From the NCBI GenBank assembly GCA_021801565.1, contig JAJYXV010000015.1, positions 23,839 to 87,838 of the forward strand: a DNA stretch of 64,000 nucleotides. Reading direction: 5' to 3'. Numbering within the stretch: position 1 is the stretch's first letter; each line of letters starts with the position of its first letter. A program made the translations under genes and the position numbers. The notes beneath the pieces are model-generated. The model was not told the DNA's origin, ran no database searches, and worked only from the letters and a program-made list of their open reading frames with translations. Below, piece by piece: positions 40,360 through 64,000 of this stretch. The DNA comes from a bacterium (GTDB taxonomy: Bacteria > Patescibacteriota > Minisyncoccia > UBA6257 > GWB1-50-10).

Positions 40360-40365
40360 TACGGT

Positions 40366-40731: not shown

Positions 40732-40740
40732 GAAATTCCT

Positions 40741-45568: not shown

Positions 45569-45624
45569 TGTTTTTATTGCCAAACCGGGTTTTCTATATC
45601 CCGCGCTATGATATAATAGATGCA

Positions 45625-47147: not shown

Positions 47148-48683
47148 ATGCGTGCAGTTCCTAAAATTCTCTCAGCAGAGCTTGATGGAATCACCGCTGA
47201 ATGTATTGAGGTGGAGGCTGATATTAATAGTGGCCTCCACTCTTTTTCTATTGTTGGACTTGCTGACAAAGCTGTGAGCGAAGCAAAGGAACGAGTAAAC
47301 TCCGCATTAAAAAATTCCGGTATACGCCCACCAACAAAAGAAAACAGAAGAATTACTATTAATTTAGCCCCAGCAGACATAAAAAAAGCTGGTTCACGTT
47401 TTGATCTTCCTATCGCACTCGCATACCTTCTCGCAAGTGAACAAATAAAAACTTTTGACACAAAAGACAAAATTTTTGTCGGAGAACTTTCTCTTGATGG
47501 ATCTTTAAGACCAATCAGCGGATGTTTAAATATTGCCAAGCTCGCAAAAAAAATGGGGGTGCAATATCTTTTTGTGCCTCATGAAAACAGGAATGAAGCA
47601 ACAATGATTGATGGGATTACTGTGTTCGGAATAAGAAGTTTACACGATCTTATTTGCCACCTTGAAAAAACAAATTTGCTTATTCCTGAAGAAAAAAATG
47701 ATATTGTCCCGATACGCCCACCAACTTCGGTTTCTCTTTCGGAAGTAAAAGGACAGGAATCGGCAAAACGTGCACTCACCATTGCGGCGGCTGGAGGACA
47801 TAACATTCTCATGTCGGGGCCGCCGGGAACAGGAAAGACAATGCTTGCTCAAGCACTTGCATCAATACTCCCGTACCCCTCACTTGATGAAATGATTGAA
47901 ATCACTGAAATATACAGTGCGGCGGGTCTCACTGCGCATGATCAGGTTATACAATGGAGACCGTTTCGCTCACCACATCATACCGCATCGCTCGTTTCAA
48001 TAATTGGTGGGGGAACAATCCCAAAGCCAGGAGAAGTGAGTCTTGCCCACCGCGGCGTTCTTTTTTTAGATGAAATGCCAGAATTTCACCAAGACACACT
48101 TGAGGGATTGAGACAACCACTTGAAAATGGATATATACATATTGCGCGCGCAAAAAAAGCCCTTGTGTTTCCTGCACGATTTATGTTGGTTGCCGCAATG
48201 AACCCGTGCCCATGTGGATATTTCGGAGATACCGCAAAAGAGTGTAAATGCACCGCGCATGAAATACTTCGGTATCAAAGAAAAATATCAGGACCGCTTC
48301 TTGATCGAATAGATTTACAACTTGAGGTTCCACGAATACCAATTGAAGAACTGAGGAAAAAGGAAGGAAATAAACAAGAAGAGGAGCGGATAAGAAAAAG
48401 TGTTTCTGACGCGCGGGAAACACAAAAAAAACGCGCAACCCAAGCCCATCTTTCTCTTCATACAAATTCAGAATTCTCATCAAAACAAGTGGATGAGCTT
48501 TTCTTGCTTGATCCTTCTGCTGAAACTTTTTTGAAAAATATTGTCGAACATTCATTTATTTCCCCTCGTGGATATTATCGAATTTTAAAGGTTGCACGAA
48601 CCATTGCCGATATTGAGGCCTCTTCTCAAATAAAAAAAGAGCACCTCGCTGAGGCATTCCAGTACAGAATAAAAGAAGGATGA
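47148..48683 (+). CDS. comM: YifB/ComM family Mg-chelatase-like AAA+ ATPase
   Basis: [12 protein letters not shown] Walker A, VLFLDEMPEF Walker B, and the Lon-like N-terminal and ChlI-like C-terminal domains. Confidence 0.9.
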   Translation: MRAVPKILSAELDGITAECIEVEADINSGLHSFSIVGLADKAVSEAKERVNSALKNSGIRPPTKENRRITINLAPADIKKAGSRFDLPIALAYLLASEQIKTFDTKDKIFVGELSLDGSLRPISGCLNIAKLAKKMGVQYLFVPHENRNEATMIDGITVFGIRSLHDLICHLEKTNLLIPEEKNDIVPIRPPTSVSLSEVKGQESAKRALTIAAAGGHNILMSGPPGTGKTMLAQALASILPYPSLDEMIEITEIYSAAGLTAHDQVIQWRPFRSPHHTASLVSIIGGGTIPKPGEVSLAHRGVLFLDEMPEFHQDTLEGLRQPLENGYIHIARAKKALVFPARFMLVAAMNPCPCGYFGDTAKECKCTAHEILRYQRKISGPLLDRIDLQLEVPRIPIEELRKKEGNKQEEERIRKSVSDARETQKKRATQAHLSLHTNSEFSSKQVDELFLLDPSAETFLKNIVEHSFISPRGYYRILKVARTIADIEASSQIKKEHLAEAFQYRIKEG

Positions 48684-48912: not shown

Positions 48913-50082
48913 CTACTTGAGTGCAAAAGGATTTTTTGCTCCCAACACTTCAAAATGAAGATGACATCCGGTTGTTCCTTGTGTATTTCCAGAACTTCCT
49001 ATAAACGCTATGTTTTCTCCCTGAGAAACAACATCTCCAACTTTTACAACGTTTTTTAATGTGTGGGCATAGCGTGTTTGTGTTTTATTTGGATGTTCTA
49101 TAAGAACGTAATTTCCATATCCACCATTCCACGATCCATCAGAAGATTCCTCAATTACCACTCCGTCCGCCGCGGCATAAATATTACTCCCGCATGTGTT
49201 TGCAATATCGACGGCATTATAATCATGTAATATTCCCCAATTCCACCCCTTCGCAGGAAGAACAAAATAACCGGCGAGGTCCGCCAAATTTTCTTTTTTC
49301 ATTTCTTTTTGCACTATTGACGTGGGAGTTTCTTTTGCGTTCGGAAGAATAAGTGTTACCCCCGATGTCTCAAGAAGTTTTGTATATTCAGGGTTGTATT
49401 TTTTTATTATTTCAGGACTTATTCCAAAACGATCAGCAATACCCTGTAATGTATCCCCTGGTTGCGTAGTATAAAGCGCGCCTGATGTAGGAAGAATAGT
49501 AAGTATTTGTCCTGTTTTTATCTTTTTTATACCCGCATTCGACGCATAAAGTGTTTCGAGTGTAATTCCAAACTGAGCCGCAATACTTGAAAATGTATCT
49601 CCTTTCTTTATTTTATATTTTTTGATTCCATCCCTCACTGGAAGGTCATTAATAAGAGACGGAGACGCGCCAAAAAGAGAGCTTTCGTCACCAGAAGTAA
49701 AAACCCTCCTACTATCATGCCCATCTTCAATGTAATAAGATGCTTGCGCGACAGAAATCGTGCCTAATTCACTCTCAAGTGATTCTGACGGACCTCCAAT
49801 TCCCCATGTGTCATATTTTTTATAAGCAGAAAAAAGAGTGCCATCACCCAAAAATATGGCACCAGAACATCCAATAATAATAAGGAAAAACAACGACCAC
49901 GCAGTAGTCGTACTTGAAAAACCCCTTAATAAAGGCTTTATGTGTGTAATAAACGTACTTATACATATACTATACCAAAAATACACATAAAAGGGAATGG
50001 CGCGGCTAGAAAAATAGACGGGCGGACTTATCAACAGGGAGCATAACATCATGCTACCGATCGACTTATAAATGTTATACAC
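48913..50082 (-). CDS. M23-family peptidase with two LysM domains
   Basis: LysM repeats (KIKKGDTFSSIAAQFGITLETLYASN, TTQPGDTLQGIADRFGISPEIIKKYN) and a C-terminal M23 domain (HTLKN...GSSGNTQGTTGCHLHFEV). Confidence 0.85.
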   Translation of the reverse strand: MYNIYKSIGSMMLCSLLISPPVYFSSRAIPFYVYFWYSICISTFITHIKPLLRGFSSTTTAWSLFFLIIIGCSGAIFLGDGTLFSAYKKYDTWGIGGPSESLESELGTISVAQASYYIEDGHDSRRVFTSGDESSLFGASPSLINDLPVRDGIKKYKIKKGDTFSSIAAQFGITLETLYASNAGIKKIKTGQILTILPTSGALYTTQPGDTLQGIADRFGISPEIIKKYNPEYTKLLETSGVTLILPNAKETPTSIVQKEMKKENLADLAGYFVLPAKGWNWGILHDYNAVDIANTCGSNIYAAADGVVIEESSDGSWNGGYGNYVLIEHPNKTQTRYAHTLKNVVKVGDVVSQGENIAFIGSSGNTQGTTGCHLHFEVLGAKNPFALK

Positions 50083-50090: not shown

Positions 50091-50660
50091 ATGAAAGAGA
50101 AGATTCGAGTTGGGTCATTTTCTCTCGCGGTATTACGAACCCTTTCTGAAACTACAAACGGGATTTTATTTGGACAACTTACTAGAGATAAAAGGGGTAG
50201 GAGCGACAACACGCGTGGATCAATGCGTTCTTCAAAAGATGGTGGGAAACATCACAATGCTCTCAAAGACGCTTCTGAAAAAAACCTGCGAGTAACGCTC
50301 TGGCGGCTTGAACAAAAGGGGTTGGTTGAAAAAAAAGAAAATAAATATTTTCTTTCTCTGCTTGGGAAAAAGTTTTTTACAAACCAAGAACAACCGAAAC
50401 AATGGGATGGAAGGTGGCGACTTATTACATTTGATATTCCCGAAACAAAACGAGGGTCGCGTATCTGGCTCCGTACAAATCTCATTCATGAAGGATATGA
50501 CACAGTACAAAAGAGTGTGTTTCTTGGAAAAAATCCGATTCCACACCGCATGATTGAAGAGATGAAAGAACGAGACATATTATCGTGTGTGCGACTCATG
50601 GTAATCGGGGAAATAGATGACGATTCATTGCTCTCCGAATATGAAAAACGACACAAATAA
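50091..50660 (+). CDS. PaaX-family-like transcriptional regulator (wHTH + PaaX_C-like domain)
   Basis: N-terminal winged helix, then WDGRWRLITFDIPETKRGSRIWLRTNLIHEGYDTVQKSVFLG. Confidence 0.5.
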   Translation: MKEKIRVGSFSLAVLRTLSETTNGILFGQLTRDKRGRSDNTRGSMRSSKDGGKHHNALKDASEKNLRVTLWRLEQKGLVEKKENKYFLSLLGKKFFTNQEQPKQWDGRWRLITFDIPETKRGSRIWLRTNLIHEGYDTVQKSVFLGKNPIPHRMIEEMKERDILSCVRLMVIGEIDDDSLLSEYEKRHK

Positions 50661-50725: not shown

Positions 50726-51568
50726 ATGGGACAAAAATTAGGACAACATTTTTTAAAGAATAAAAAAATACTTCAGATAATTGCCGGGGCAGCTGAATTG
50801 CGTGATGGTGAAACCGTGATTGAAGTCGGTCCAGGACACGGGGAGCTCACAGAGCACCTCAAATCTCAAACCTCAAATCTCAAAAATTGCAAAATAATTT
50901 TGATCGAGAAAGATAAGGCACTTGCTGAACAACTGGAGAAAAAATTTGAAAAAGATAAAAATATAAAAATTATTTATGGAGATGCTTTAAAAATACTTTC
51001 CAGGGTTGTCTCTTCTCTCTCACATAAATCTTCTTCTCTGGGCCCCAGTTATATACTTGTTGGAAATATTCCTTACTACATCACCGGATATTTGCTTCGA
51101 ACAATTCAAGAACTAAAAAATAGACCAACTCGTACAATCGTTATGATACAAAAAGAGGTCGCTGAGCGTATTGTAAAAAAACCACCGGAAATGAATTTAC
51201 TTGCCGCAAGCGTGGCATATTGGGCTGATGCCGCAATTATTATGAGCGTATCAAAAAAAGAATTTGTCCCACAACCAAAAATTGATTCTGCGGTAATCGC
51301 GCTTCATACAAAAAGAACACACTTAAAAAATAGTGGGGGAGAAGAAAAAAAATATTATAAAACACTTGGTATATTATTCAAACAACCAAGAAAAACAATA
51401 AAAAATAATATAACGTTATCGTATCGATCGGCTAGTAAATGTAACACCGGAGAAAAAGAGGAGATATTTAAGAGGTTAAAAAAAACAGGAATAGATATTG
51501 AGCAACGATCACAGAACTTAAGCGTAGAGGAAATAAGAAGGGTCGCAAATGTTATATGTACAAAATAA
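50726..51568 (+). CDS. rsmA: 16S rRNA (adenine1518/1519-N6)-dimethyltransferase
   Basis: MGQKLGQHFLKN...VIEVGPGHGELTE...VGNIPYYIT. It has an insert, LKSQTSNLKNCK, encoded by AAATCTC repeats. Confidence 0.9.
   Translation: MGQKLGQHFLKNKKILQIIAGAAELRDGETVIEVGPGHGELTEHLKSQTSNLKNCKIILIEKDKALAEQLEKKFEKDKNIKIIYGDALKILSRVVSSLSHKSSSLGPSYILVGNIPYYITGYLLRTIQELKNRPTRTIVMIQKEVAERIVKKPPEMNLLAASVAYWADAAIIMSVSKKEFVPQPKIDSAVIALHTKRTHLKNSGGEEKKYYKTLGILFKQPRKTIKNNITLSYRSASKCNTGEKEEIFKRLKKTGIDIEQRSQNLSVEEIRRVANVICTK
50857..50895. repeat. heptanucleotide repeat (CTCAAAT/CTCAAAC) inside rsmA
   Basis: cctcaaatctcaaacctcaaatctcaaaaattgcaaaat. Confidence 0.8.
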
Positions 51569-51615: not shown

Positions 51616-52233
51616 ATGAAAATAAAATATATGTTTTCTAAACAAATAAAAAAAGGGCGAAACATACCAAAAAGACGCATGTGCCGACACCGGCAGGCGG
51701 AAGCATATATATTCTCTACTATTAATGGGGGGAGAAAATATATTGCTATATTCGTTCTTTTCCTCGTTATGTTTGCCTCTTTGGGCGATAAAACGTTTGC
51801 CGCCATATCTCCAATAAGCCCGTTTGGAGGAAAGGTGATTTCGTGGCTTCCTTCGGCGCCAGGATGTCTTGCTTTTACCACAGCCGTATCTCTCGCAACA
51901 CTCGGTACAATCAATCCGAGTGTTGAAGAATTGGTGGTGGGACCTCCCAATGGCGGAACGTTCGGTATTCTTCGTGTTAATCTTATTCCTGTTCCTCCAA
52001 CAACGATTCATATATATCAACAATATCAACTCCCAGAAACGTACGTACTTGGCTCTTCGGTAAATATTTGTGATGCGTGTAAGGCCGTCGACAAACTTCC
52101 GTTTCTCAAAAATGTGTGCAACACGGGCATCTTAAAAGATATACTTGGAACAGTATGTAGTTTTATTGGCGGCGCATGTCCGATAACAAACCTTGTTTTG
52201 AAGATGGGAACAGCAATAAAACCATCACCGTAG
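51616..52233 (+). CDS. hypothetical secreted/membrane-anchored Cys-containing protein
   Basis: 205-aa ORF with a hydrophobic anchor and 8 Cys in its C-terminal half. It is the first gene of the T4SS-like block. Confidence 0.45.
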   Translation: MKIKYMFSKQIKKGRNIPKRRMCRHRQAEAYIFSTINGGRKYIAIFVLFLVMFASLGDKTFAAISPISPFGGKVISWLPSAPGCLAFTTAVSLATLGTINPSVEELVVGPPNGGTFGILRVNLIPVPPTTIHIYQQYQLPETYVLGSSVNICDACKAVDKLPFLKNVCNTGILKDILGTVCSFIGGACPITNLVLKMGTAIKPSP

Positions 52234-52290
52234 TCTTCTTGTTTTGTCTCACAAGACTTGGAAAAGCTGATATAATAATAATGAAACAAT

Positions 52291-53043
52291 ATGTCCTTTA
52301 TTAGAAAACATAAAAAAATCTTCTCTCTCCTTATTGTGGTGTGTGCGATAATTACATCGTTCTTTATTGTGCGCGGAGGACAAGAAAAAAAACCAGATTA
52401 TCTTTTCCAAGTAGTAAAAAATACAGCTGAAACGCCATCAACACATATTAAGAATCCGCTTCCTAATCTCACCACCGAATTTACCACTGAATCTCTCAAA
52501 ACACTTATGTCTGAAAAAAATAATGTTGCCGCACAGGAGAAAAACGATGCATCGCAAGCGAAAACACTTCCCGACAAGAACGCCGTGGAAAAAATCGTTG
52601 GTGATATTATCGACAAAGAACTTGAATCGGAAACCATTGATCCAAAAACAATCAGTGTGGCAAAAGACGATTCAAAACAAATGCAAGTGGTATATCTCTT
52701 AGTAATACAAGAAATTATAAAAAATGTATCTGAAAAAAATAGCACGGAAGATGTAACAAAGATGCCTATTGCCGCATATTTTGGAAATATTGGAAATAAT
52801 TTTAAAAACACTGTTGATATTTTAAAAATAATGAACGTTCCACCGTCGTGGGTCGATATACATGCAAGTCTCCTTGGGTTTTTTACTTCACAAAAAAATG
52901 TGTATCTTTCGCTTTCACAAGCCGACCAAGATCCGCTCCGATTTATGATCGCGATTCAGCGCATCGCCGATGAAAGTGAGAAAAAATTTGATGATATTCG
53001 AATAAAAATAGACAAGCGGGTAAAAGAACAAAAAATTATCTAA
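52291..53043 (+). CDS. hypothetical N-terminally anchored protein
   Basis: 250-aa ORF with one TM helix and a charged extracytoplasmic domain. Confidence 0.5.
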   Translation: MSFIRKHKKIFSLLIVVCAIITSFFIVRGGQEKKPDYLFQVVKNTAETPSTHIKNPLPNLTTEFTTESLKTLMSEKNNVAAQEKNDASQAKTLPDKNAVEKIVGDIIDKELESETIDPKTISVAKDDSKQMQVVYLLVIQEIIKNVSEKNSTEDVTKMPIAAYFGNIGNNFKNTVDILKIMNVPPSWVDIHASLLGFFTSQKNVYLSLSQADQDPLRFMIAIQRIADESEKKFDDIRIKIDKRVKEQKII

Positions 53044-53052
53044 TTTATAGCT

Positions 53053-54546
53053 ATGGTGCATTATATAAAAAATATTGTTGTCCTCTTCTTTATTGTGGTG
53101 TTTTTATATGCTCCATTTTCTGCGTACGGGCAATCTACTTCAACAACCGCCACTTCAACACAAACACTTTCAAGTAAGGGAGAGGTGCAAGGAATGGAAA
53201 TGTGTATCAAGGCGGCGCGTCTTTCTGCAAAATATGGTGGATTTACGGCGCTTGATCGTGTACAAACAAATATCACAAACAGCGTGAAAAATTATCTAAG
53301 TATGCAATTTAATAGCGCAACGGGTCTTAATATTGATTTTTCGAATCTCGGATCAAGCATTATTAATCAAGGGCTAGGGATGTTAAATGACGTATTTGGA
53401 AACGTCCTGAAAGATGAAGTAGGAAAACAAGTGGATACACTAAAGAAAAAAGCACAAGATGAATTGGAAAGAATAGCAAAAGAAGCGCTTGGAAACGTAG
53501 TCAAAGATGCGACAAACGCGTTAAATCCGCTTTCTCCAGTACCCACCGCAGAACAAGGGGACTTGCTTGATGAAGCAAGAAAACAAAACGAAAAAACAAA
53601 TCAAATGATCGCCGAACAGAAACGCGCTCAACTTATTGCGGATACGCGGGATAAATGCCAAGAACTTTTAAAAACCACCACAGAGACAATAAAGCGATCT
53701 CTTTTGTATCAACTCTCAAACCAAATTACACAATGGATTGTAAACGATGAAAAACCGCAATTTGTAAAAGACCCCGGGCAATTTTTAGCGGATACTGCGC
53801 AACTTGCAGTTGATCGAACGATCTCCAGAATTGCTCCTCGCCTTTGCACTCCATTCCAGCTTTCCATCACTGCACAAATTCCAACCGCAAACCGACAGGC
53901 AAATCCGTTCTACGAAGAGCTAACCTGCACGCTCGACCAAGTAACAGGAAATATTGAGGCGTTCTATAACGACTTCAGAAACGGCGGGTGGATCGCATAT
54001 CAAGAAATGTGGAAACCGCAAAATAATTATTATGGCGCATCAATGATGGTTCAAGAAGAACTTGCACAACAACAAGCGGCTGCCACACAACTCGCGCAAG
54101 AAGACTTACAAAGAGGAAGTGGTTTTCCCAGTCAAACACAATGTGTTGAGTGGCAACTTTATGTACCAACGGATTGTAATTTAAACGATTTGCAAAAACG
54201 GATGTCTGATGTTCTTCAAGTTGGGGGGCAATGTTTTGTTGCGGTGGATGGAGAAATACACGGACCCACGGATGACGGGAAAGAGCCACCACTTAGCACC
54301 GCAACCACACAGGCACCCGAAGGATCATATTGGCAGTGTCAGAGAAGTGAAATCACGAATCCAGGAACCATCACCGCACGTCTGGGAGAAAAAGCACAAC
54401 AAATGGAAGTAAATCAACTTGAAACAACAGGCGATATAGAAAATTTCCTTGATACGATTGGCGATGCAATTGTAAACAAACTCGTAAAGTCTGGTATTGG
54501 GGGCCTCCGCGGATTATTACAGGGGCTTCCTCCGCTAAATCCCTAA
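53053..54546 (+). CDS. hypothetical secreted protein (Gln-rich)
   Basis: 497-aa ORF with a signal peptide and a coiled-coil/Q-rich sequence. Confidence 0.5.
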   Translation: MVHYIKNIVVLFFIVVFLYAPFSAYGQSTSTTATSTQTLSSKGEVQGMEMCIKAARLSAKYGGFTALDRVQTNITNSVKNYLSMQFNSATGLNIDFSNLGSSIINQGLGMLNDVFGNVLKDEVGKQVDTLKKKAQDELERIAKEALGNVVKDATNALNPLSPVPTAEQGDLLDEARKQNEKTNQMIAEQKRAQLIADTRDKCQELLKTTTETIKRSLLYQLSNQITQWIVNDEKPQFVKDPGQFLADTAQLAVDRTISRIAPRLCTPFQLSITAQIPTANRQANPFYEELTCTLDQVTGNIEAFYNDFRNGGWIAYQEMWKPQNNYYGASMMVQEELAQQQAAATQLAQEDLQRGSGFPSQTQCVEWQLYVPTDCNLNDLQKRMSDVLQVGGQCFVAVDGEIHGPTDDGKEPPLSTATTQAPEGSYWQCQRSEITNPGTITARLGEKAQQMEVNQLETTGDIENFLDTIGDAIVNKLVKSGIGGLRGLLQGLPPLNP

Positions 54547-54549
54547 TCA

Positions 54550-56931
54550 ATGTTTAAAAAATATAAAAAAATACTTATTTTTGTGTTGTTGTTTATAACC
54601 ATTTTTATTTCTGGATCTGTTTTTCTTACACAAAAAGCAAATGCAATAGCAGGATATCCAGATTTTATGATGAACCCCTATAATCCAGTTACACAAAAAA
54701 TAGGAGAGGTGGCAACAGATATAATAACATGGCCACTAAGAGAGGCGTTTAAGGGACTTATGTATGTTTTAGCACTTATTGCGGGGCTTTTATTTTGGAT
54801 AGGGGCGCAGCTCATTGGATTTTTTATGTCGCTCAATATGGCAATTTTCGACATGCCTCTCGTTGAGGTGGGGTGGAAAATTGTCCGCGATGTTGCAAAC
54901 TTGGGATTTGTTCTTGCAATTATCATTATTGCAGTTGCTACCATTGTGCGATACGAAGAGTATGGAACAAAAAAACTTCTCCCAAAGCTTATCGCGGCCG
55001 CAATTTTAGTAAATTTCAGTTTAACCATTGGCGCTGTGTTTATTGATTTTTCAAACACACTTACAAATTTCTTTATCTCTAAGTCTTCAAAAAATGGTGA
55101 TGTTATTGGTATGACCACAGAACTTGCGAGAGGTTTTGATACACAGCAATTTTTAAGAACACACACAAGCGGCAACCAATTTATACAAGGGGGGGCAGCA
55201 CCAATATATGAAACATTTGCATCAATTTTAAGTTTATCTATGGCCGCATTATTTACATTTATTTCCGCGGTGAGTTTGTTGGGAATCGCAATTATGCTTC
55301 TCGTGCGTTTTATGTATCTCTCCGTGCTTCTTCTTGTTTCTCCGATTATTTATCTCTTTTGGGTCATACCCGATACAGCATCGGTGTGGAAAAGTTGGTG
55401 GAGAAAGTTTTTGGAATGGGTATTTAATGCTCCAATTCTTACTTCGTTTCTTTATCTTACCGTCATATCAACTACCGCGCTTGGAAAATTTGCTGATAAA
55501 TATGCGGTCAGTGCTGGTTCAAAAATTAATGACAGTTTATCGCTCACCCCTCAAATTCTTATTGTTATAGGAAACTCACTTATTATGACTGGGCTTCTCG
55601 TTGGAGCGCTTTTGGTGGCAAACAGTTTGGGTATTACCGGCGCAACCACCGCATATAGTCTCGCGTCAAAAGCCGGAAAAACAACAAAGAAGTGGGCACT
55701 TGATAAGAGCAAGGGCGCGGCGAAAAAGGCTGGGAGAAGCGCGCTCACGGCAGGAACAAAGACAGATGATCAAGGAAACACAACGACCGCGCTCGAACGA
55801 TTTGGCGGAAAGTATGGAAAGATTCCTCTTATCGGCAGGGCAATTACGGGGATTTCTGGTGCCTCATCCTCTGCAAGGGCAACAAGTGGCAAGGGAGTAG
55901 AGGAAAGAATGAAGGGACTTGAAAACAGGACGGGCGACGACTTGGTGGCGCTCGCGAGCAGAAAGGGTCTTTCATCGGAGGAGCTTGCAGCCACTGGTAT
56001 TGCCGCCGCGAAGAAAGGAAAATGGAATGATCTAAGTGAAGAAACACGAAAGAGCGTGGTGGATGCGGCACGAAAAACAAAGACGGGAGATAAACTTGCT
56101 GAACAAGCCCCGTGGCTCGCAAAAGAACTGGGAGAAGACGAAGTAAAGATAGCCGCAAAAATGAACGAAGTTCCAAAGAGTGCAATTTATGAAAAGAAAG
56201 ATGGTGATGGAAACGTCATTAAAGACGCAAGCGGCAAACCAATAAAGGAGGTGAATCCAAATTACGAGAAGTTTGTACAGGATAACGCAATGAATTTCCC
56301 GGCTCAATTTAAAGAAGAAATTGGAAAACTTCCAAAGGACACCGGAGAGGCGGTGCGCGAGGCATTTACAGCTGGTCTTAAAGATAAGGTGAGAGAAAAA
56401 ATAGAGGTTGAGGTTTATAATGCGGCGACAAAAACATTCGAAAAAGAAAAAGGATATGAAGCGGTTGAAAAGGCAAATAAGATTATAGACGACACAAAGG
56501 GTCCGTTGAAAATAATAGAAACGGCTATAGAAGATTTGAGAGATAAGGTTGATAAACCACAACTTGTTGCACTCCAAAAACAAAAAACAAAACTTGGTGA
56601 CGAGGAAACAAAACTTAATAACGAGTTGAATGGTCTACGAAGCGATCCATTACTAAACGCTGGTAAGATCAAGGAAACAGAGAAAAAAATAGCAACAATC
56701 AAGAAAGAAATTGTGTCTGTCGAAAAAGAGTTTACAAATCTTAATGATATACAGACAGAATTTGATAACAAAAAGGCCGAGCGAAAAGCAATAATTGATG
56801 TGGTATCTACTCAAGAAGAGAAATTAAAAAAGATGAAAGATAGTATTGGAAGGGAAAACGCTCGTATAGTGAGCAAACTTGACGATATTACAAAAGATGT
56901 TTCGTTCAAAAAAAACCAAAAAACACCCTAA
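54550..56931 (+). CDS. VirB6/TrbL-like polytopic membrane protein with long C-terminal coiled-coil/charged extension
   Basis: About 7 TM helices in the first ~380 aa, then a Lys/Glu-rich coiled coil. Its position lies upstream of the VirB3/VirB4 homologues. Confidence 0.5.
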   Translation: MFKKYKKILIFVLLFITIFISGSVFLTQKANAIAGYPDFMMNPYNPVTQKIGEVATDIITWPLREAFKGLMYVLALIAGLLFWIGAQLIGFFMSLNMAIFDMPLVEVGWKIVRDVANLGFVLAIIIIAVATIVRYEEYGTKKLLPKLIAAAILVNFSLTIGAVFIDFSNTLTNFFISKSSKNGDVIGMTTELARGFDTQQFLRTHTSGNQFIQGGAAPIYETFASILSLSMAALFTFISAVSLLGIAIMLLVRFMYLSVLLLVSPIIYLFWVIPDTASVWKSWWRKFLEWVFNAPILTSFLYLTVISTTALGKFADKYAVSAGSKINDSLSLTPQILIVIGNSLIMTGLLVGALLVANSLGITGATTAYSLASKAGKTTKKWALDKSKGAAKKAGRSALTAGTKTDDQGNTTTALERFGGKYGKIPLIGRAITGISGASSSARATSGKGVEERMKGLENRTGDDLVALASRKGLSSEELAATGIAAAKKGKWNDLSEETRKSVVDAARKTKTGDKLAEQAPWLAKELGEDEVKIAAKMNEVPKSAIYEKKDGDGNVIKDASGKPIKEVNPNYEKFVQDNAMNFPAQFKEEIGKLPKDTGEAVREAFTAGLKDKVREKIEVEVYNAATKTFEKEKGYEAVEKANKIIDDTKGPLKIIETAIEDLRDKVDKPQLVALQKQKTKLGDEETKLNNELNGLRSDPLLNAGKIKETEKKIATIKKEIVSVEKEFTNLNDIQTEFDNKKAERKAIIDVVSTQEEKLKKMKDSIGRENARIVSKLDDITKDVSFKKNQKTP

Positions 56932-56934
56932 CAC

Positions 56935-58200
56935 ATGGAAGAGATGAATGACATTCCACAAACCATACGTGATCAAATAGGATCAGGAAAAATTATCGCA
57001 ACCATTGATTCAATCAATGAGCGTGCCGACATTGCGCGTCTTGATATTATTCCACAACTTGTATATGACGTGCTTTCAAGGGGTGTTCCCGCAAAAGATT
57101 TTATTTCACACTGTTCGGGTGTTTTAAACTTCAATCAAAAAAAGTTGAAAGCGGTGGTGCGAGAAATAAAAGAAAAAATATTGAAACAATTTGATTATGC
57201 GCTTTTGAACTATGGGGTAGATATAAAAGAGATAGATGTGTCAGATGCGATGACGCTTGATGAATACACAAAACAACATAATGAGATGCTTGCTTCTGTT
57301 GGTATTGAGGTTGAAAAACCAGTTTCTACAATTTCTCTCGAAAATTTCTCGGACACCGAACCAGAAAATCTTGGTCCGGTGAAAATAAGCGTAAGCGGAC
57401 CCACTGACGAAACCACAAAAAAAATTGAAGTAACCGAAGAACCCGCACCACTTGTAATACATAGAGAAAAACCACAAACGGCCGCACAAGAGAATCTACC
57501 AACTAAGGGATACTCACAACAAACAAGGGGGTTTTCCCTCCCATTTGGGTTTTTTAAACAAAAAATTGTGCAAACACAAGCGCCATCAACACCAGTGAAA
57601 GCAACGATTGAATTTTGGAAGAAAGATGAACCAAAAAAACGCGCTGTTGATTATAGTGAGTTGAGAACACCACTTACGCCTTTTGCCGGACTAACCAACA
57701 ACAAGCAACCAACAACCGACAACACTAAAATAACTGACATCGGGATAAAAGAAACTGACCGCGCTCAAACACAGCCAATAACTCAGAAAATAAATCCACT
57801 TATGATGTTTGGAAACAAACAAACGACAAACAACCCTCAACCAACAACACAAAAAGAGGGGGGTGGCATCCTTGATATTAGGACGGGGGAGAGAAACGAC
57901 AAACAACCGAAAATCGAAAACTTAAGAGAAAATACAAAAACATCCGCCCAAGGCGGACCGGCCTCGGGTCGGCAGACCGCTCCAGTAATAAATACCGTTC
58001 CAAAACAAAACACACCCACCGAGCAAAAACCAACTCCAAACCCACAACAGCAAAAAACCGAAGGTCAAAAAGGAAAGGGGTTTGTCTGGTTTAAAAAACC
58101 AACGCAGAAAAGTACAACGATAACTAACAACAACACAGACAAAGATCCGAGAATCGAAGGAAACACGGTTGATCTACGATCAACAAACAATGAAAAATAA
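56935..58200 (+). CDS. hypothetical protein with Thr/Gln/Pro-rich C-terminal region
   Basis: 421-aa ORF that abuts the preceding gene with a 3-nt gap. Confidence 0.5.
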   Translation: MEEMNDIPQTIRDQIGSGKIIATIDSINERADIARLDIIPQLVYDVLSRGVPAKDFISHCSGVLNFNQKKLKAVVREIKEKILKQFDYALLNYGVDIKEIDVSDAMTLDEYTKQHNEMLASVGIEVEKPVSTISLENFSDTEPENLGPVKISVSGPTDETTKKIEVTEEPAPLVIHREKPQTAAQENLPTKGYSQQTRGFSLPFGFFKQKIVQTQAPSTPVKATIEFWKKDEPKKRAVDYSELRTPLTPFAGLTNNKQPTTDNTKITDIGIKETDRAQTQPITQKINPLMMFGNKQTTNNPQPTTQKEGGGILDIRTGERNDKQPKIENLRENTKTSAQGGPASGRQTAPVINTVPKQNTPTEQKPTPNPQQQKTEGQKGKGFVWFKKPTQKSTTITNNNTDKDPRIEGNTVDLRSTNNEK

Positions 58201-58202
58201 CA

Positions 58203-58577
58203 ATGACAGGGGATAAAAACCACGGATTTCGTTTCAAAGAATGGGACATTTATAAAGACTCGCGGAAACTAAGAACACAAATAAACGCTCTATTGAAAAC
58301 ATATCCCAAAGAAGAAAAGTTCGCGCTTGTTGACCAAACAAAAAGGGCATTAAATTCAATAGTGCTAAATATAGCCGAGGGGTCAAATAGAAGCACAGAT
58401 AAAGATTCAAAACTTTTTATAAATCGCGCACACGCGTCTCTTGATGAGGTTGTTGCATGCATTGATTGTGCGCTTGATGATAATTATATAGACAAAGAGG
58501 TGCACGAAAACATCATGATTAAATCTGAAAACTTAGCAAAACAATTAAGGGGATTTTATAAATATCTTTCCAAGTGA
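58203..58577 (+). CDS. four-helix-bundle protein (23S rRNA intervening-sequence protein family)
   Basis: WDIYKDSRKLRTQINALLKTYPKEEKFALVDQTKRALNSIVLNIAEGSNR. Confidence 0.65.
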   Translation: MTGDKNHGFRFKEWDIYKDSRKLRTQINALLKTYPKEEKFALVDQTKRALNSIVLNIAEGSNRSTDKDSKLFINRAHASLDEVVACIDCALDDNYIDKEVHENIMIKSENLAKQLRGFYKYLSK

Positions 58578-58622
58578 TTTTTTGTAATTGTTATCGGTTA
58601 TAGTTATAGTTAATGTATACTC

Positions 58623-59111
58623 ATGGCTACTTTTCAGGTTCCGCAATTTATTGATCAAAAACCAAAAATAGTAGGGCCGCTCACGCTCACACAGTTTTTT
58701 TATATTGCAATTGCGGCGGGTATTGTATTCGCTTCTTTTTATATATTTAATCTTTTTGTTTGGATACTTGTAAGTATTGTTTTTGTTACAATCGGTGTTG
58801 GGCTCGCATTCATAAAAATAAATGGACGGGAGATGCCAAAAGTAATACGCGACGGGCTTTATTTCTTTTTAAAACCGCGAATTTATACGTGGCAAAGGAT
58901 TACAGAAGAACCGCTTTACGAAGAGGAGAAAATAGAAAATACAAGAAAAACAATGGGTGCGAGAGAAAAATTAAATTCAATCGTACTAAACGTCACCACA
59001 GGAAAATTGTTTTCACCAAAACAAATGAGAAGCGAACAAAAAAAAGAAGAGTATCAAGTGGCCACATTCGAGACCGGAGAAAGAAGAAAAATAAAAAGAG
59101 TGGACTATTAA
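58623..59111 (+). CDS. PrgI/VirB3-like T4SS membrane protein
   Basis: MATFQVPQFIDQKPKIVGPLTLTQFFYIA followed by 2 TM helices, as in the PrgI family. Confidence 0.55.
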   Translation: MATFQVPQFIDQKPKIVGPLTLTQFFYIAIAAGIVFASFYIFNLFVWILVSIVFVTIGVGLAFIKINGREMPKVIRDGLYFFLKPRIYTWQRITEEPLYEEEKIENTRKTMGAREKLNSIVLNVTTGKLFSPKQMRSEQKKEEYQVATFETGERRKIKRVDY

Positions 59112-59198
59112 CAATACTAAAACTCTAATTTCCAATATCAAACGAAGACAAAAAATCAAAATGACAAACGAGGACATAAATTAACCGCCGATAAAATC

Positions 59199-59310
59199 TC
59201 AAATTACCAATGTCGAATAAATAACAAAATCAAAACACTAAATTTTTAAGTTTTAATCATTTGAATTTTGTTGGAAATTAAGATTTTGAAACTTGGATTT
59301 TAAATACAAG
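59199..59310 (+). repeat. ~110-bp direct repeat copy 1 (upstream of VirB4 N-domain gene)
   Basis: caaattaccaatgtcgaataaataacaaaat...tgttggaaattaagattttgaaacttggatttt is about 85% identical to 59981-60088. Confidence 0.75.
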
Positions 59311-59329
59311 ATAGTAGATAATAAAAAGT

Positions 59330-59980
59330 ATGTCGAACACACCAAAAAACACAACCGCACCATCCCAACAATTTGTTGAAATTACAAAGGTAGAAGATGG
59401 AGTAGTATATCTTAAAAAAGGAGGGATTCGCAAGATAATCATTGTGAGCGGAATTAATTTTGATTTAAAATCAGAAACCGAACAGAATCTTATATTAAGC
59501 AGCTTTCAAGACTTTTTAAATACGGTTGATTTTTCGGTACAATTTTTTGTTCATTCAAGGAAGGTAAATATTGATACTTACATGGAGCGAATGCGAGCGC
59601 GTCGCGAAGAAGAATCAAATGAACTTTTAAAAATACAAATAGATGAGTATATAAATTTTATAAAAACATTTATCGAACAGAATAAAATAATTTCAAAAAC
59701 ATTTTTTGTCATTGTTCCCTATGAAGCGGGGGATGCTATTGAACAAGCAAAGAAGGGGTTTCTGAGTTTTTTTGGAAAAAAACAATCACAAACCGAAGAT
59801 GTTCCAAATGCACAGGCGGCAATTGAACAGCTAAATCATCGTGTTGACCAGGTAATTTCTGGTCTTCAACAAATTGGACTTCGAGCGGTTCCTCTTGAAG
59901 ATGAAGAGCTCACCGAGCTTTTTTATAATCTCTATAATCCGCAACTTGTCGAGAAAAAAGGAATAGAGGTGCAGAAATGA
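59330..59980 (+). CDS. VirB4/TrbE N-terminal domain protein (separate ORF)
   Basis: VVYLKKGGIRKIIIVSGINFDLKSETEQNLILSSFQDFLNTVDFSVQFFVHSRK fits the VirB4 N-terminal pattern. Confidence 0.5.
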   Translation: MSNTPKNTTAPSQQFVEITKVEDGVVYLKKGGIRKIIIVSGINFDLKSETEQNLILSSFQDFLNTVDFSVQFFVHSRKVNIDTYMERMRARREEESNELLKIQIDEYINFIKTFIEQNKIISKTFFVIVPYEAGDAIEQAKKGFLSFFGKKQSQTEDVPNAQAAIEQLNHRVDQVISGLQQIGLRAVPLEDEELTELFYNLYNPQLVEKKGIEVQK

Positions 59981-60088
59981 CAAATTACTAATTTTCAATG
60001 TCGAACAAATAACAAAATTAAAAAATCAAATTTAAGATCTTTGTCATTTAGATTCTGTTGGAAATTAAGATTTTGAAATTTGGATTTA
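59981..60088 (+). repeat. ~110-bp direct repeat copy 2 (between VirB4 halves)
   Basis: caaattactaattttcaatgtcgaacaaataacaaaat...tgttggaaattaagattttgaaatttggattt. Confidence 0.75.
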
Positions 60089-60095
60089 ACAACAT

Positions 60096-61844
60096 ATGCC
60101 TCAAACAAACGAAAAATCAAACGCGCAGGATAATCTTTCAAACATCATTGCTCCCGCAGGCGTTGAAACGGGTTCAAATTATTTGAAAATAGGTGACTAC
60201 TATGCAAAAACATTTTTTGTATTCAATTATCCGCGTTTTATTTCGAGTGGATGGTTTTCTCCAATTATCAATTTGTCAGAGATGATGGATATTTCAATAT
60301 TTGCCCACCCAATGGATACCGGGCTGGCACTCAGGAATCTGAGAAAAAAAGTTGCACAGGTCGAGGCAGAAATAAATGAAAAACAAGACAAGGGAATTGT
60401 ACGCGATCCAATGCTCGAAACAGCATATGAAGACATTGAAAATTTGAGAGACTCGCTTCAACAAGCGAGAGAAAAACTTTTTCAGGTCGCGATCTACATT
60501 ACGATTTACGGAGAGGATTTAAAAAATCTTTCGAGGCTTGAAAATACACTCGAATCGCTTTTAGACAGTAAGTTGGTATATATAAAACCGGCGCTTTTCA
60601 GACAAATTGAAGGATTTAATTCCGTGCTTCCGATTGGAAAAGATGAACTCGCAGTAAATACCCCCCTTAACTCAGGTCCTTCATCCTCGCTTTTTCCATT
60701 TGTCTCTCCGGATCTTACTTCAGACAAAGGAATTCTCTTTGGGCTCAATATGCACAACAATGGTCTCATTATTTTCGACCGCTTTTCGCTTGAAAACGCA
60801 AATACGGTGGTGTTTGCAAAATCAGGATCAGGAAAGTCTTATGCATCAAAACTCGAAATACTCCGCTCTCTCATGGTGGGAACAAATGTAATTGTCATTG
60901 ATCCAGAAAACGAATACCAAAATCTCGCAAATTCAATTGGAGGAAGTTATTTTAAAATTTCACTCACCTCACAAAATCACGTAAACCCGTTTGATATTCC
61001 CGTAATTCCCGAGGGCGAGGAACCGGCCGACGTATTTAAATCTCATGTATTAAATCTGAGTGGACTCTTAAAATTGATGTTAAAAGAAATAAGCGCGGAA
61101 GAAGATGCAATTCTTGATCGCGTGATTATTGAAACGTACGCATCACGCGACATTACTGCTGAAAATTTTGGAACGATAAAAGAATTGAACCCGCCGCTTT
61201 TGGAAGATCTTCAAACTGTTTTAGAAAATACTGAGGGAGGACAAAATATGGCAAAACGACTGGAGAAATTCACTCGCGGATCATATGCCGGATTTACTAA
61301 TGCGCCGACGAATGTCGATATTAAAAATCGTCTTATTGTATTCTCTATCCGCGATCTTGAAGAAGAACTCCGTCCAATCGCAATGTATATTGTTCTAAAT
61401 TTTGTATGGAATCTTGTCCGATCTGAATTAAAACGCAGACTTCTTGTTGTTGATGAAGCGTGGTGGATGATGAAGTATAAAGACAGCGCATCGTTTTTAT
61501 TCGGTCTCGTAAAGCGTGCAAGAAAATATTACCTGGGAGTTACCACCATCACGCAAGACGTCGAAGATTTTTTGAAATCGGAATATGGAAAGCCAATTGT
61601 CACTAACTCATCAATACAATTACTCTTAAAACAGTCGCCGTCGAGTATTGGGGTGGTAACACAAGCATTTGATTTAACCGGCGGCGAACAATCATTGCTT
61701 CTTGAGGCGGGCGTGGGAGAGGGACTTTTCTTCGCTGGGCTAAAACACGTGGCGATAAAAATAATTGCCTCCTATACCGAAGATCAGATCATCACCACAA
61801 ATCCAGAACAAGTACTCCAGACCAAAGGGTTGTCATCCTTATAA
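60096..61844 (+). CDS. virB4: VirB4/TrbE/CagE-family T4SS ATPase (CagE_TrbE_VirB domain + ATPase)
   Basis: FFVFNYPRFISSGWFSPIINLSEMMDISIF, Walker A FAKSGSGKSYASK and Walker B LLVVDEAWWMM. Confidence 0.85.
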   Translation: MPQTNEKSNAQDNLSNIIAPAGVETGSNYLKIGDYYAKTFFVFNYPRFISSGWFSPIINLSEMMDISIFAHPMDTGLALRNLRKKVAQVEAEINEKQDKGIVRDPMLETAYEDIENLRDSLQQAREKLFQVAIYITIYGEDLKNLSRLENTLESLLDSKLVYIKPALFRQIEGFNSVLPIGKDELAVNTPLNSGPSSSLFPFVSPDLTSDKGILFGLNMHNNGLIIFDRFSLENANTVVFAKSGSGKSYASKLEILRSLMVGTNVIVIDPENEYQNLANSIGGSYFKISLTSQNHVNPFDIPVIPEGEEPADVFKSHVLNLSGLLKLMLKEISAEEDAILDRVIIETYASRDITAENFGTIKELNPPLLEDLQTVLENTEGGQNMAKRLEKFTRGSYAGFTNAPTNVDIKNRLIVFSIRDLEEELRPIAMYIVLNFVWNLVRSELKRRLLVVDEAWWMMKYKDSASFLFGLVKRARKYYLGVTTITQDVEDFLKSEYGKPIVTNSSIQLLLKQSPSSIGVVTQAFDLTGGEQSLLLEAGVGEGLFFAGLKHVAIKIIASYTEDQIITTNPEQVLQTKGLSSL

Positions 61845-61950
61845 TATATGCCCAGTGGTGATCCGCCAATTAGCGGACTACTAATCAGATCAGAAGATTC
61901 TTAGATAAAACAATGCCTTTTCAAATGTGTCTGCAATAGCATAAATATAT

Positions 61951-62382
61951 ATGGCCGAAGAAACAAAAAAAACTGGAGGGGAAAAAATAAAAACAGACGG
62001 AACAGAGCATAAAAAAAGATTTGGGACCGGAGAATTTATATTAGTTACCCTTATTTTGTTCTTTGCCGAGTTATTTGACTTTCTCATGAATATAGCATTT
62101 CCGATTCCTGTCGTGGGTCAAGTACTCTCAATTTTTGGAAGTTTATTTAGTTTTGTTGTTGGAGCATTTTTCCAGTTATATTTATTTTTAAAAGGGGCCC
62201 GCGGGATAGCTACGTGGTCAACAAGTATCGCCGGGTGGGTGGCAAATAGTATTCCGCTTCTTCAGATTTTTCCACTTCAAATTCTCGCATGGTTCGTAGT
62301 TGTAATAATTGAAAACAACCCAAAAGCACAAAAAATTGCTTCTGTCGCGAGTGGAAAGGCTGGTTCCGCAATAAAGAAATAG
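61951..62382 (+). CDS. hypothetical polytopic membrane protein
   Basis: 143-aa ORF with 3-4 TM helices. Confidence 0.45.
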   Translation: MAEETKKTGGEKIKTDGTEHKKRFGTGEFILVTLILFFAELFDFLMNIAFPIPVVGQVLSIFGSLFSFVVGAFFQLYLFLKGARGIATWSTSIAGWVANSIPLLQIFPLQILAWFVVVIIENNPKAQKIASVASGKAGSAIKK

Positions 62383-62405
62383 TTTTTATTGTATAATTAG
62401 AGAAT

Positions 62406-63077
62406 ATGAAAGTGAGGTTTATATTTCTTCTGTTTTTCTTTTGTCTTCTTGTTTTTTCTTTTGTCTCGGCACAAACCGGAGGTAATCTCATCATTACATG
62501 GCATGCCAACAATTATGTCCCCGAAGATTTTCAAGAAAAAGCATTTCCGACAAACGGAAACACCGTTCAAGTTTCTGTGGAATTTTTATTAGGCCAAAAA
62601 ATACAGAACATCTCACAAGTAGATATATCATGGTTTGTTGATGGGGTATTTTTTACCAAGGGCACCGGATTGAAAGAGATGTCATTTCCCATCACAAAAG
62701 TTGGGAGAAGCTCACATTCTGTGCGGGTTGTTATCCAAACAAAAACCGATAAATATGAGGGAATTATTTCCATTCCTGTGTTTAATCCGATAATAACGAT
62801 TGAAAACAAATACCCGCGCGGACTTGTTCGTTCTGGCGAACAAGTAAGCTTCTTTGTCATTCCATATTTTTTCAACATTTCATCACCATCTGAAATCACT
62901 TCTTTATGGACAATAAATGGCAACGCACAGGAGGGAACTCGCGATACGCTTCTTACATTAAATATTGGCGCTCCAAAAACTTCAGAACAAAAAAACATGA
63001 CAATTGAATCGTTCGTACAAAATATAAAAAACGGGCTTGAGTTTGCAAAAGAAAAAATAAACCTTTATATACAATAA
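62406..63077 (+). CDS. hypothetical secreted protein
   Basis: 223-aa ORF with a signal peptide (MKVRFIFLLFFFCLLVFSFVSAQ) and a beta-rich sequence. Confidence 0.5.
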   Translation: MKVRFIFLLFFFCLLVFSFVSAQTGGNLIITWHANNYVPEDFQEKAFPTNGNTVQVSVEFLLGQKIQNISQVDISWFVDGVFFTKGTGLKEMSFPITKVGRSSHSVRVVIQTKTDKYEGIISIPVFNPIITIENKYPRGLVRSGEQVSFFVIPYFFNISSPSEITSLWTINGNAQEGTRDTLLTLNIGAPKTSEQKNMTIESFVQNIKNGLEFAKEKINLYIQ

Positions 63078-63080
63078 TTT

Positions 63081-64000
63081 ATGGTAAAACCAATTTTTAA
63101 AATAATATTTCTCGTTGTTTTATTTACATCACTTGCTGTTGTTGCGCGCGCAGCCGTCATAGATTACAAATTTCCTTGTTCAAATTTTGGAACAGAACTC
63201 CTTGGATACACCGATTGTGCATCTGCTGATACCTCCGCTAGTATCCCCAACTATATACGGCGTCTATATCAATTTGCGATCGGTATTTCCGGAATACTTG
63301 CTGTGGGAATGATGGTGGCGGGAGGAATACTTTATACCGTCTCCGGTGGAAGTCCCGACAAACAAAACGAAGGAAAAGATATGATTTTTTCGGCGCTCTG
63401 GGGACTTGGGCTTTTATTTGGCGCGTATATTATTTTAAACACAATAAATCCGCAACTTACTGAACTGAAAGAGCCAGACGCACCACAATTTACTGGCACC
63501 AATTACACCAATCCAGCGGAAACCGCCCTGGGGCAGCCATGGGGGTGGTGCGAGGCGTCAAAAGCAGAGTGTGCTGCTGCAATACAAAAAAGCAGTAATT
63601 CAACCTCAACGGGAATTAGTTGTTGTCTTGCGGTAAAACAAAATACTGGATTGGCCGATTGCAAAGCCGATGGATGGGGATGGGATAATAGACCAAACAT
63701 ACAAAAAAGTTGTTGCATTATTGGATCTGTTATTGGTAATTGTGCCTACGGGACAGGTGCAATGACCAATACCCAATTACAACAAAGAGAAGAACAGATA
63801 AGAGAAACGCTCAGGTTGGGTGGAATAACGGTAAATAAGACATGTTATATTCCAACCCAAGACGGTTGTACCAATGTTGGATTACTTCCTGAATCAACAA
63901 TTGATGCCCTTCTTACAATAAAAAAGAAGTGTAATTGTGACGTGATGGTAACTGGCGGTGCAGAAACCGCGGGCCATAAAACACACGGACCAGGAAAACC
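63081..64000 (+). CDS. TrbC/VirB2-like pilin domain fused to Cys-rich extracellular domain (partial, runs off window)
   Basis: ATG at 63081, a signal peptide, then FAIGISGILAVGMMVAGGILYTVSGGSPDKQNEGKDMIFSALWGLGLLFGAYIILNTI and a >15-Cys C-terminal region. No stop lies in the window. Confidence 0.6.
   Translation, partial: MVKPIFKIIFLVVLFTSLAVVARAAVIDYKFPCSNFGTELLGYTDCASADTSASIPNYIRRLYQFAIGISGILAVGMMVAGGILYTVSGGSPDKQNEGKDMIFSALWGLGLLFGAYIILNTINPQLTELKEPDAPQFTGTNYTNPAETALGQPWGWCEASKAECAAAIQKSSNSTSTGISCCLAVKQNTGLADCKADGWGWDNRPNIQKSCCIIGSVIGNCAYGTGAMTNTQLQQREEQIRETLRLGGITVNKTCYIPTQDGCTNVGLLPESTIDALLTIKKKCNCDVMVTGGAETAGHKTHGPGK

Follow-up and report, generated by a model that had tools for sequence, protein, structure and literature searches.

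A large part of bacterial diversity consists of Patescibacteria (Candidate Phyla Radiation, CPR), which live attached to other microbes. A type IV secretion system (T4SS) was found in 2,417 of 3,035 Patescibacteria genomes, and its VirB4 proteins form a clade that is nested among those of conjugation systems from single-membrane bacteria (Quinonero-Coronel et al. 2025, PMC12102498). Its parts are TrsD, which is the most abundant T4SS component detected, PrgI, VirB6 and VirB2-like pilins, the latter often in arrays of 2-11 genes (PMC12102498). Relaxases are almost entirely lacking, homologues of the type IV coupling protein (T4CP) rarely lie near virB4, and in Paceibacteria the system adjoins dnaA, dnaN, rnpA and ksgA (PMC12102498). 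Here we describe one locus of this kind, at 51616-64000 of a 64,000-nucleotide (nt) stretch of contig JAJYXV010000015.1 (assembly GCA_021801565.1). The whole stretch is called the window, and all coordinates refer to it.

In S. epibionticum the T4SS (SEML1_0006-0019), which is without coupling and relaxase proteins, and the pilins were shown by transposon sequencing (Tn-seq) to be essential for epibiotic growth (Wang et al. 2023, PMC10633639). Deletion of comEC in the same species abolished transformation and left the cells viable, while the T4SS is essential; the 2025 review that summarizes this speculates about a conduit role of the pilus in exchange or uptake (PMC12857230). In a cultivated relative, possible T4SS-pilus tubes reach and apparently penetrate the host envelope, and host RNA is taken up (2026 preprint, bioRxiv 10.64898/2026.06.21.733656). 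The T4SS is essential in the one tractable species. The locus analysed here offers a clean origin-adjacent example from Paceibacteria, with 11 conserved genes of which six are unannotated.

Open reading frame (ORF) calling recovered twelve genes between 51616 and 64000, all on the plus strand, in agreement with an earlier sequence-only reading of the window. The twelve stated positions stood; the end of the block at 64000 did not, as one further conserved cluster gene lies beyond that position. The block encodes the membrane core of a T4SS, namely a VirB6-like channel protein, PrgI/VirB3 and the pair of TrsD and VirB4 ATPase. One VirB2-like pilin gene is found inside the cluster and five more are arrayed 12 kb upstream. 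The block sits between ksgA and the origin genes rnpA-yidC-jag and dnaA-dnaN. It is highly likely to be a chromosomal, vertically inherited T4SS typical of Patescibacteria, in a Paceibacteria (Parcubacteria, Jorgensenbacteria-like) organism. The sequence-only reading had taken it for a T4SS-like pilus machine of CPR bacteria and not a conjugative element, and the relatives of VirB4, the fixed synteny and the published architecture support this. The pilus reading is essentially right, but the system was already described in 2023-2025; the locus is an ordinary copy of a known system and adds no new kind of system.

The virB4 gene (60096-61844, plus strand) encodes an ATPase of 582 amino acids (aa) that belongs to the CD1110 family, a type known from the conjugation systems of single-membrane bacteria, and is without the N-terminal domain. 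It matched the NCBIfam model NF045971 with 370.2 bits against a cut-off of 325, over model positions 185-733, and the Pfam families P-loop_TraG, AAA_10 and DUF87. The best 120 of 8000 VirB4 homologues are stand-alone proteins of 545-604 aa, and all members among them with a named taxon come from metagenome-assembled genomes of Patescibacteria/CPR, mainly Jorgensenbacteria, Brennerbacteria and Paceibacterota. Together with all 80 genome loci described below, which are likewise from Patescibacteria/CPR metagenome-assembled genomes, these relatives are 66-100% identical to the VirB4 of the window.

Directly upstream lies trsD (59330-59980, plus strand; 216 aa), a stand-alone homologue of the VirB4 N-terminal domain. 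TrsD matched NF041427 with an E-value of 3.4e-9, under the curated cut-off, and aligned to positions 2-133 of the CD1110 model; a precomputed match to PF26593 (TraC-like) was also found. In 74 of 75 related loci trsD is separate from virB4, as an ORF of 193-239 aa, and the commonest junction between the two genes is a 4-nt overlap (15 loci). The sequence-only reading had described VirB4 as being in two pieces. The two ORFs are real, and they are the standard pair of trsD and virB4, not a peculiarity or a broken gene. A pseudogene or a gene disrupted by an insertion was ruled out by the separation in 74 of 75 relatives and by the length of 545-604 aa in all 120 listed homologues. The separation of TrsD and VirB4 is an ancient domain fission and not damage. 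At one locus, L084 of Parcubacteria GW2011_GWA2_47_8b, a TrsD-like region and VirB4 are contained in a single 716-aa ORF (9575-11725 of that locus); it represents a natural fusion or else an intermediate stage of that fission.

Two further core proteins were found at all of the 36 related loci with full flanks. A PrgI/VirB3-like membrane protein of 162 aa is encoded at 58623-59111 (plus strand), and it matched PF12666 with 31.4 bits against a cut-off of 27, as expected from the assignment made in the sequence-only reading. The VirB6/TrbL-like polytopic membrane protein ("extended VirB6") of 793 aa, encoded at 54550-56931 (plus strand), has five to six predicted membrane helices followed by a hydrophilic, coiled-coil-rich C-terminal tail of about 400 aa, and the tail matched only coiled-coil families in Pfam. 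For the identical protein a precomputed match to PF19590 (TrbL_3) carries no mark as weak or faint. Four of 31 orthologues matched PF04610 (TrbL), with a best E-value of 1.2e-6. When the window protein itself was searched against Pfam with hmmscan, no TrbL-family match was obtained even at E<=0.1; the discrepancy with the precomputed match is probably due to a difference in Pfam version or model. The helices, the precomputed match and the TrbL matches of the orthologues together sustain the VirB6-like identity with a long coiled-coil tail, as proposed earlier.

A scan of one genome per species gave 80 loci with VirB4 proteins 66-97% identical to that of the window, 36 of which have full 10-kb flanks. 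The synteny comparison that the sequence-only reading had suggested showed that gene order is kept in all 36 of these related Paceibacteria species. The order is comM, the M23 peptidase gene (minus strand), ksgA, g01 (where present), g02, g03, virB6, g05, a four-helix-bundle gene (where present), prgI, trsD, virB4, g10, g11, the pilin gene, g13, the jag/yidC/rnpA block (minus strand), dnaA and dnaN, where the g numbers denote unannotated genes that are described below. The pilin gene and g13 are swapped in a minority of loci, and the origin block is inverted in one locus. No shift in GC content or composition was detected across the block. The same order in 36 of 36 species indicates vertical chromosomal inheritance and not a mobile element, and VirB4 proteins that are 66-97% identical across genera indicate strong purifying selection.

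Among window ORFs of at least 300 aa, no member of a T4CP/VirD4, VirB11 or relaxase family was found, which is in line with the absence of these genes reported from the sequence alone. Outside the cluster these ORFs are housekeeping genes, encoding TsaD, a class I aminoacyl-tRNA synthetase with a LeuRS-type editing domain, MurD, H+-PPase, NusA, FtsK, RecA, SHMT, FtsH, S1, GyrA, a solute-binding protein, XerC/D, PNPase, ComM and an M23-LysM peptidase. A 407-aa ORF at 45559-46782 had no Pfam match. The FtsK-like ORF at 19337-21451, the sole FtsK-type ATPase among these ORFs, was considered as a coupling protein and ruled out, because it carries the FtsK alpha and gamma domains of chromosomal FtsK. 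The flanks were read from public contigs that carry identical proteins and run past the window. The 8 kb before the window contain housekeeping genes, and the 9 kb past it contain the rest of the pilin gene, g13, jag/yidC/rnpA on the opposite strand, dnaA, dnaN, a gene for a class A penicillin-binding protein and ruvC. As jag-yidC-rnpA and dnaA-dnaN are directly downstream, the cluster abuts the replication origin. No relaxase, coupling protein or VirB11 was found within about 82 kb, that is, in the window and the called genes of the flanks. A relaxase or VirD4 gene just past 64000, the scenario named in the sequence-only reading as one that would turn the locus into a conjugative element, is excluded: g13 and then the origin genes are located there.

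The pilin gene of the cluster begins at 63081 (plus strand) and is cut by the window end at 64000. The full protein sequence of 359 aa was taken from locus L001. It matched PF18895 with 38 bits against a cut-off of 26.6 and consists of a signal peptide, two membrane helices and a Cys-rich C-terminal extension of about 235 aa, and thus corresponds to the pilin fused to a Cys-rich domain that had been read from the window. The extension is extracytoplasmic by predicted topology. In relatives the pilin domain is conserved and the extension varies in sequence and length, with whole proteins of 162-568 aa. The last ~115 aa form a domain that recurs, at E<=1e-3, in 709 clusters defined at 50% identity. 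It is located at the C-terminus, or within a few residues of it, in nearly all of 83 full-length matches, and 140 of 156 fetched proteins with this domain also carry a VirB2-like pilin domain.

This C-terminal domain contains the motif TGGxE..H-x2-H-x7-D...E-x3-H-x-H, which is invariant or nearly so in the 83 homologues. The residues concerned are T291-G292-G293-x-E295, H299, H302, D310 and H353-x-H355, together with C255 and C263. Conservation is 100% for H355, 98% for H353, 82% for E349 and 81-83% for four further Cys residues. A scan of 83 members located the motif in 76, and 65 of these have the E-x3-HxH spacing. The Hh/DD-peptidase (LAS) family is defined by the motifs H-x6-D and H-x-H (Roelink 2018, PMC6027127). 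In an alignment made with hhalign, the conserved residues of the C-domain are in register with the zinc-binding and catalytic residues H140, D147, E176 and H180-x-H182 of human Shh, which are H141, D148, E177 and H181-x-H183 in mouse numbering (PMC6027127). One member with the canonical spacing (HYYGKAVD) gave Hedgehog N-domains as 18 of its 19 best PDB matches, including the whole top 17. The C-domain is likely, though unproven, to be a zinc peptidase of LAS type.

Several results weigh against this assignment. Of 80 members, 77 have H-x7-D, which is one residue longer than the canonical H-x6-D, and one member has x6. The Hedgehog matches in PDB were not significant (E=0.37-0.9), nor was the hhalign comparison of the C-domain with Shh (probability 1.7%). 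The C-domain profile gave 0 matches at E<=10 against PDB sequences. No Pfam match was above threshold, HH_signal (E=0.016) and M15_4 (E=0.18) each being hit by one of 46 members, and a PHROGs search with the C-domain returned nothing informative.

Compared with M15-type peptidases of the LAS/Hedgehog group, the C-domain shares the order of the invariant His, Asp, Glu and HxH residues and the E-x3-H-x-H spacing, and it differs in H-x7-D, in an added conserved Cys pattern of disulfide type and in its fusion to a T4SS pilin. As in bacterial Hh-like proteins, the peptidase-like part is at the C-terminus of a larger extracellular protein. No report of a T4SS pilin fused to a peptidase-like domain was met in the literature searched. 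A VirB1-like wall-opening activity is usually missing near the pilin genes of these systems (PMC12102498), and the C-domain, if it is such an enzyme, would be a candidate for it. We tentatively suggest that the cluster pilin may be a LAS/Hedgehog-DD-peptidase-like enzyme displayed on the membrane or pilus, which would supply VirB1-like wall cutting or would cut host peptidoglycan at the contact site, and that it may form, together with the six unannotated families, a Paceibacteria-specific extracellular T4SS module without counterpart in studied systems. The fusion is a testable lead on how a pilus-bearing machine passes one or two cell walls.

The six unannotated families g02, g03, g05, g10, g11 and g13 are conserved, syntenic core parts of the system in this class. 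The presence of each family was scored by iterative hidden Markov model (HMM) searches over the 36 loci with full flanks. That several components would resist annotation had been anticipated: no significant Pfam, NCBIfam or PDB-sequence match was obtained for g01, g02, g03, g05, g10, g11 or g13, with single proteins, orthologue sets or profiles. Nor did g01, g02, g03, g11 or g13 resemble VirB8/PrgL, VirB1/PrgK or VirB5 in Pfam, NCBIfam or PDB sequences. Profiles of g11, g03, g13 and the pilin C-domain searched against PDB sequences gave nothing or coiled-coil noise.

The protein g02 (52291-53043, plus strand; 250 aa; 34 of 36 loci) has one N-terminal membrane anchor (helix 9-27) and is fast-evolving, with no Pfam match in 32 orthologues. 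The 497-aa protein g03 (53053-54546, plus strand; 36 of 36 loci) is secreted or anchored and has a signal-like N-terminus. Its alignments show four nearly invariant Cys residues (C265, C292, C364 and C429), a GGW element in which G311 and W313 are invariant among closer relatives, and an invariant pair N324-N325 with the consensus PQNN; it had no homology in PDB or Pfam. The family g05 (56935-58200, plus strand; 421 aa; 36 of 36 loci) is mostly low-complexity, rich in T, Q and P, and has no membrane helix. Its consensus motifs are PFxLHEE, KGFSxPFGFFK, KRVVHYSExRTP and a strictly C-terminal EGNxIDLR. The protein is cytoplasmic and mostly disordered, and it may serve the ATPase as an adaptor or be one of its substrates. 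Some g05 orthologues bear an extra N-terminal helical domain of about 190 aa.

Downstream of virB4, g10 (61951-62382, plus strand; 35 of 36 loci) encodes a polytopic membrane protein of small size. In its alignment E28, D40, K81 and N122 are near-invariant and P102 is invariant, and the g10 slot is occupied by a small hydrophobic ORF in nearly all relatives. The secreted protein g11 (62406-63077, plus strand; 223 aa; 36 of 36 loci) has a signal peptide and probably consists of two immunoglobulin-like beta-sandwich repeats. Six of its 38 orthologues gave sub-threshold matches, three to BiPBP_C (best E=3e-4), two to PKD and one to PKD_3, and g11 had no PDB match. The last gene, g13, lies beyond 64000 in the same orientation and was present at 36 of 36 loci; its 398-aa product has a single N-terminal membrane anchor and gave faint beta-propeller hints only. 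The first gene of the block, g01 (51616-52233, plus strand), encodes a Cys-containing protein of 205 aa that begins with a hydrophobic segment. Only 11 of 36 loci have a homologue in this position, and g01 is a variable, lineage-restricted member. Neither g01 nor g10 matched the pilin-domain HMM, and both were rejected as extra pilins.

The locus shares with other T4SSs of the Patescibacteria clade the separate TrsD, the conjugation-type VirB4, PrgI/VirB3, VirB6 and the pilin array, as well as the absence of a relaxase and of a nearby T4CP and the site next to dnaA, dnaN, rnpA and ksgA. There is no difference in kind. In this strain the operon also carries two inserts, a four-helix-bundle gene and a spacer element of 107 nt in duplicate, and the present analysis adds the six syntenic unannotated families and the peptidase-like C-domain of the pilin. 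Homology of VirB4, PrgI, TrsD and VirB6 is also shared with the T4SSs that serve conjugation in Gram-positive bacteria (pCF10 Prg/Pcf, CD1110 of C. difficile CTn2 and Trs of pGO1), as are a monoderm envelope and the lack of an outer-membrane core complex. Those systems own a relaxase, a T4CP (PcfC), VirB8-like PrgL, VirB1-like PrgK and adhesins and have no pilin, whereas the locus described here encodes pilins, lacks a nearby relaxase or T4CP and keeps one position on the chromosome.

On the model of homologous systems, VirB4 and its detached N-domain TrsD would dock on PrgI and VirB6 and would provide the power to pull pilins out of the membrane and to assemble them into a tube on the cell surface. 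Wall-spanning or tip parts may be formed by the secreted or anchored g02, g03, g11 and g13. The tube would contact the host cell on which the epibiont depends and would serve as a conduit for protein, RNA or another cargo, in one direction or the other. The C-domain of the cluster pilin, probably a zinc peptidase, would cut peptidoglycan cross-links and so open the cell's own wall or that of the host locally. Some points tell against reading the locus as such a non-conjugative pilus machine. The assigned function extrapolates findings on Saccharimonadia and those of one preprint, not findings on this lineage, and distant T4CP homologues occur in most Patescibacteria genomes (PMC12102498). No VirB8- or VirB1-like part was recognised, and the six unannotated families are without fold assignment. 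The AlphaFold models, built from shallow alignments, are of low confidence and unusable, with a mean pLDDT (predicted local distance difference test) of 42.3 from 11 sequences for g03 and 39.5 from 7 sequences for the pilin fusion.

The machine is most probably not one for conjugation. An integrated conjugative element or its decayed remnant would account for the derivation of the VirB4, TrsD and PrgI families from conjugation systems of single-membrane bacteria (PMC12102498) and for a XerC/D-type recombinase beside tRNA-Leu at 41297-42448, but the housekeeping genes rpsO, pnp, comM and ksgA lie between that recombinase and the cluster. No relaxase, T4CP or oriT-like context is present within the 82 kb, no GC shift is seen, and the chromosomal position shared by 36 of 36 species and the purifying selection on VirB4 also oppose it, which makes this origin extremely improbable. 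Export of effectors is unlikely as well. In this case proteins such as toxins, hydrolases or host-manipulating factors would be secreted into or onto the host, as by the T4SSs of pathogens, and it has been suggested for the S. epibionticum system that it "may instead export proteins" (Wang et al. 2023, PMC10633639). The C-terminal EGNxIDLR of the disordered, cytoplasmic g05 could, speculatively, be a secretion signal or mark an adaptor, but the motif has no known precedent as a signal; moreover, no coupling protein is located nearby to recruit substrates, and no recognisable effector genes are found in the cluster.

The import of nucleic acids, in which the machine would pull DNA or RNA inward from the environment or the host, is a somewhat improbable alternative. 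H. pylori ComB and archaeal Ced are VirB4-powered without a relaxase or coupling protein and are precedents for inward transport. ComB lacks a relaxase and a T4CP, and the present locus resembles it in this respect. ComB is, however, a diderm set of VirB2-4 and VirB6-10, and Ced consists of CedA, CedA1 and CedA2; the similarity of the VirB4 of the window to CedB is weak (E=6e-11), its score of 41.6 bits being far below the cut-off of 700. The transformation helicase gene comM lies upstream of the M23 gene and ksgA in 23 of the 36 full-flank loci and pnp is 6 kb upstream of the cluster, but rpsO-pnp and comM are ordinary housekeeping neighbours. In genomes of the class ABY1 the T4SS sits with comF, recG and radA (PMC12102498). 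The cultivated relative with possible T4SS tubes takes up host RNA, but the route of uptake is left unresolved in that preprint (bioRxiv 10.64898/2026.06.21.733656). S. epibionticum, as described above, no longer transforms once comEC is deleted but stays viable, whereas it cannot do without the T4SS (PMC12857230), and the DNA uptake that the sequence-only reading had offered as a function of these pili found no specific support. A pilus machine that contacts the host remains the preferred reading, and the genes around the cluster are described below.

Five VirB2-like pilin genes are located in tandem at 38761-41070 (plus strand), 12 kb upstream, and encode proteins of 268, 112, 117, 121 and 109 aa. 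The product of the first gene (38761-39567) matched PF18895 and combines a Gly-rich linker with a C-terminal domain rich in Cys. All five matched an HMM built from the cluster pilin domain, with E-values from 1e-12 to 4e-7. This array, which the sequence-only reading had left unconnected with the cluster, probably supplies the major pilins. It is followed by tRNA-Leu (41297-41383) and the XerC/D-type recombinase gene (41540-42448, minus strand).

The upstream boundary of the cluster is ksgA/rsmA (50726-51568, plus strand), which encodes an rRNA adenine dimethylase (Pfam RrnaAD, E=1.2e-44); it is not a component, and in 35 of 36 full-flank loci it precedes the cluster. A divergent neighbour at 48913-50082 (minus strand) encodes a LysM-LysM-M23 peptidoglycan peptidase (Pfam M23, E=4e-24, and LysM), which by association alone is a candidate wall-remodelling partner with a VirB1-like role. 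In tblastn searches this peptidase gene was placed close to the 5' end in 25 of the 36 loci with full flanks, on the minus strand and directly upstream of ksgA in most of them. The comM gene (47148-48683 in the window) was near the 5' end of 23, and both genes lie at the very edge of the 10-kb flank. Their proximity could point to a functional connection, through wall remodelling or DNA processing, or to no more than housekeeping synteny close to the origin. A 189-aa protein with a PaaX-middle/Cas2-like domain is encoded at 50091-50660, in the interval from the M23 peptidase gene to ksgA, and it was seen in only 2 of 36 relatives. Elsewhere in the window, ARAGORN called a tRNA-Ile with the anticodon TAT (UAU) at 29991-30063, an uncommon way of reading AUA in bacteria.

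The spacers around trsD contain a direct repeat of about 107 nt. Copy 1 (59194-59300, plus strand) precedes trsD and copy 2 (59982-60087, plus strand) lies between trsD and virB4; the two copies are about 80% identical to each other and lengthen the spacers to 218 nt (prgI-trsD) and 115 nt (trsD-virB4). A further partial copy is present at 59127-59160. The repeat is confined to the contigs of this strain and is missing from the closest relative in the set, whose VirB4 is 97% identical. No other copy was found in the window or related loci, and no metagenome contig matched. No RNA-structure signal was detected (z = -0.4). A structured RNA or a dispersed mobile element was rejected, there being no fold signal and no Rfam match. 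The repeat could be a duplicated promoter or ribosome-binding-site region or a tiny insertion element.

The gene at 58203-58577 (plus strand) encodes a 124-aa four-helix-bundle protein of the 23S rRNA intervening-sequence (IVS) protein or bAvd-like type, with matches to PF05635 (E=6.8e-26) and TIGR02436 (83 bits). The sequence-only reading had identified the family correctly and had counted the gene among the parts of the machine. As it is found in only 5 of 36 related loci, it is an accessory insertion and not a T4SS component; it is missing from the closest relative, L007. The gene was also seen at the same g05-prgI junction in distant species (at about 8430 in L018, 8390 in L022 and 8380 in L082) and at another place in L083. 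Repeated insertion into a single site suggests that this gene family can move or home.

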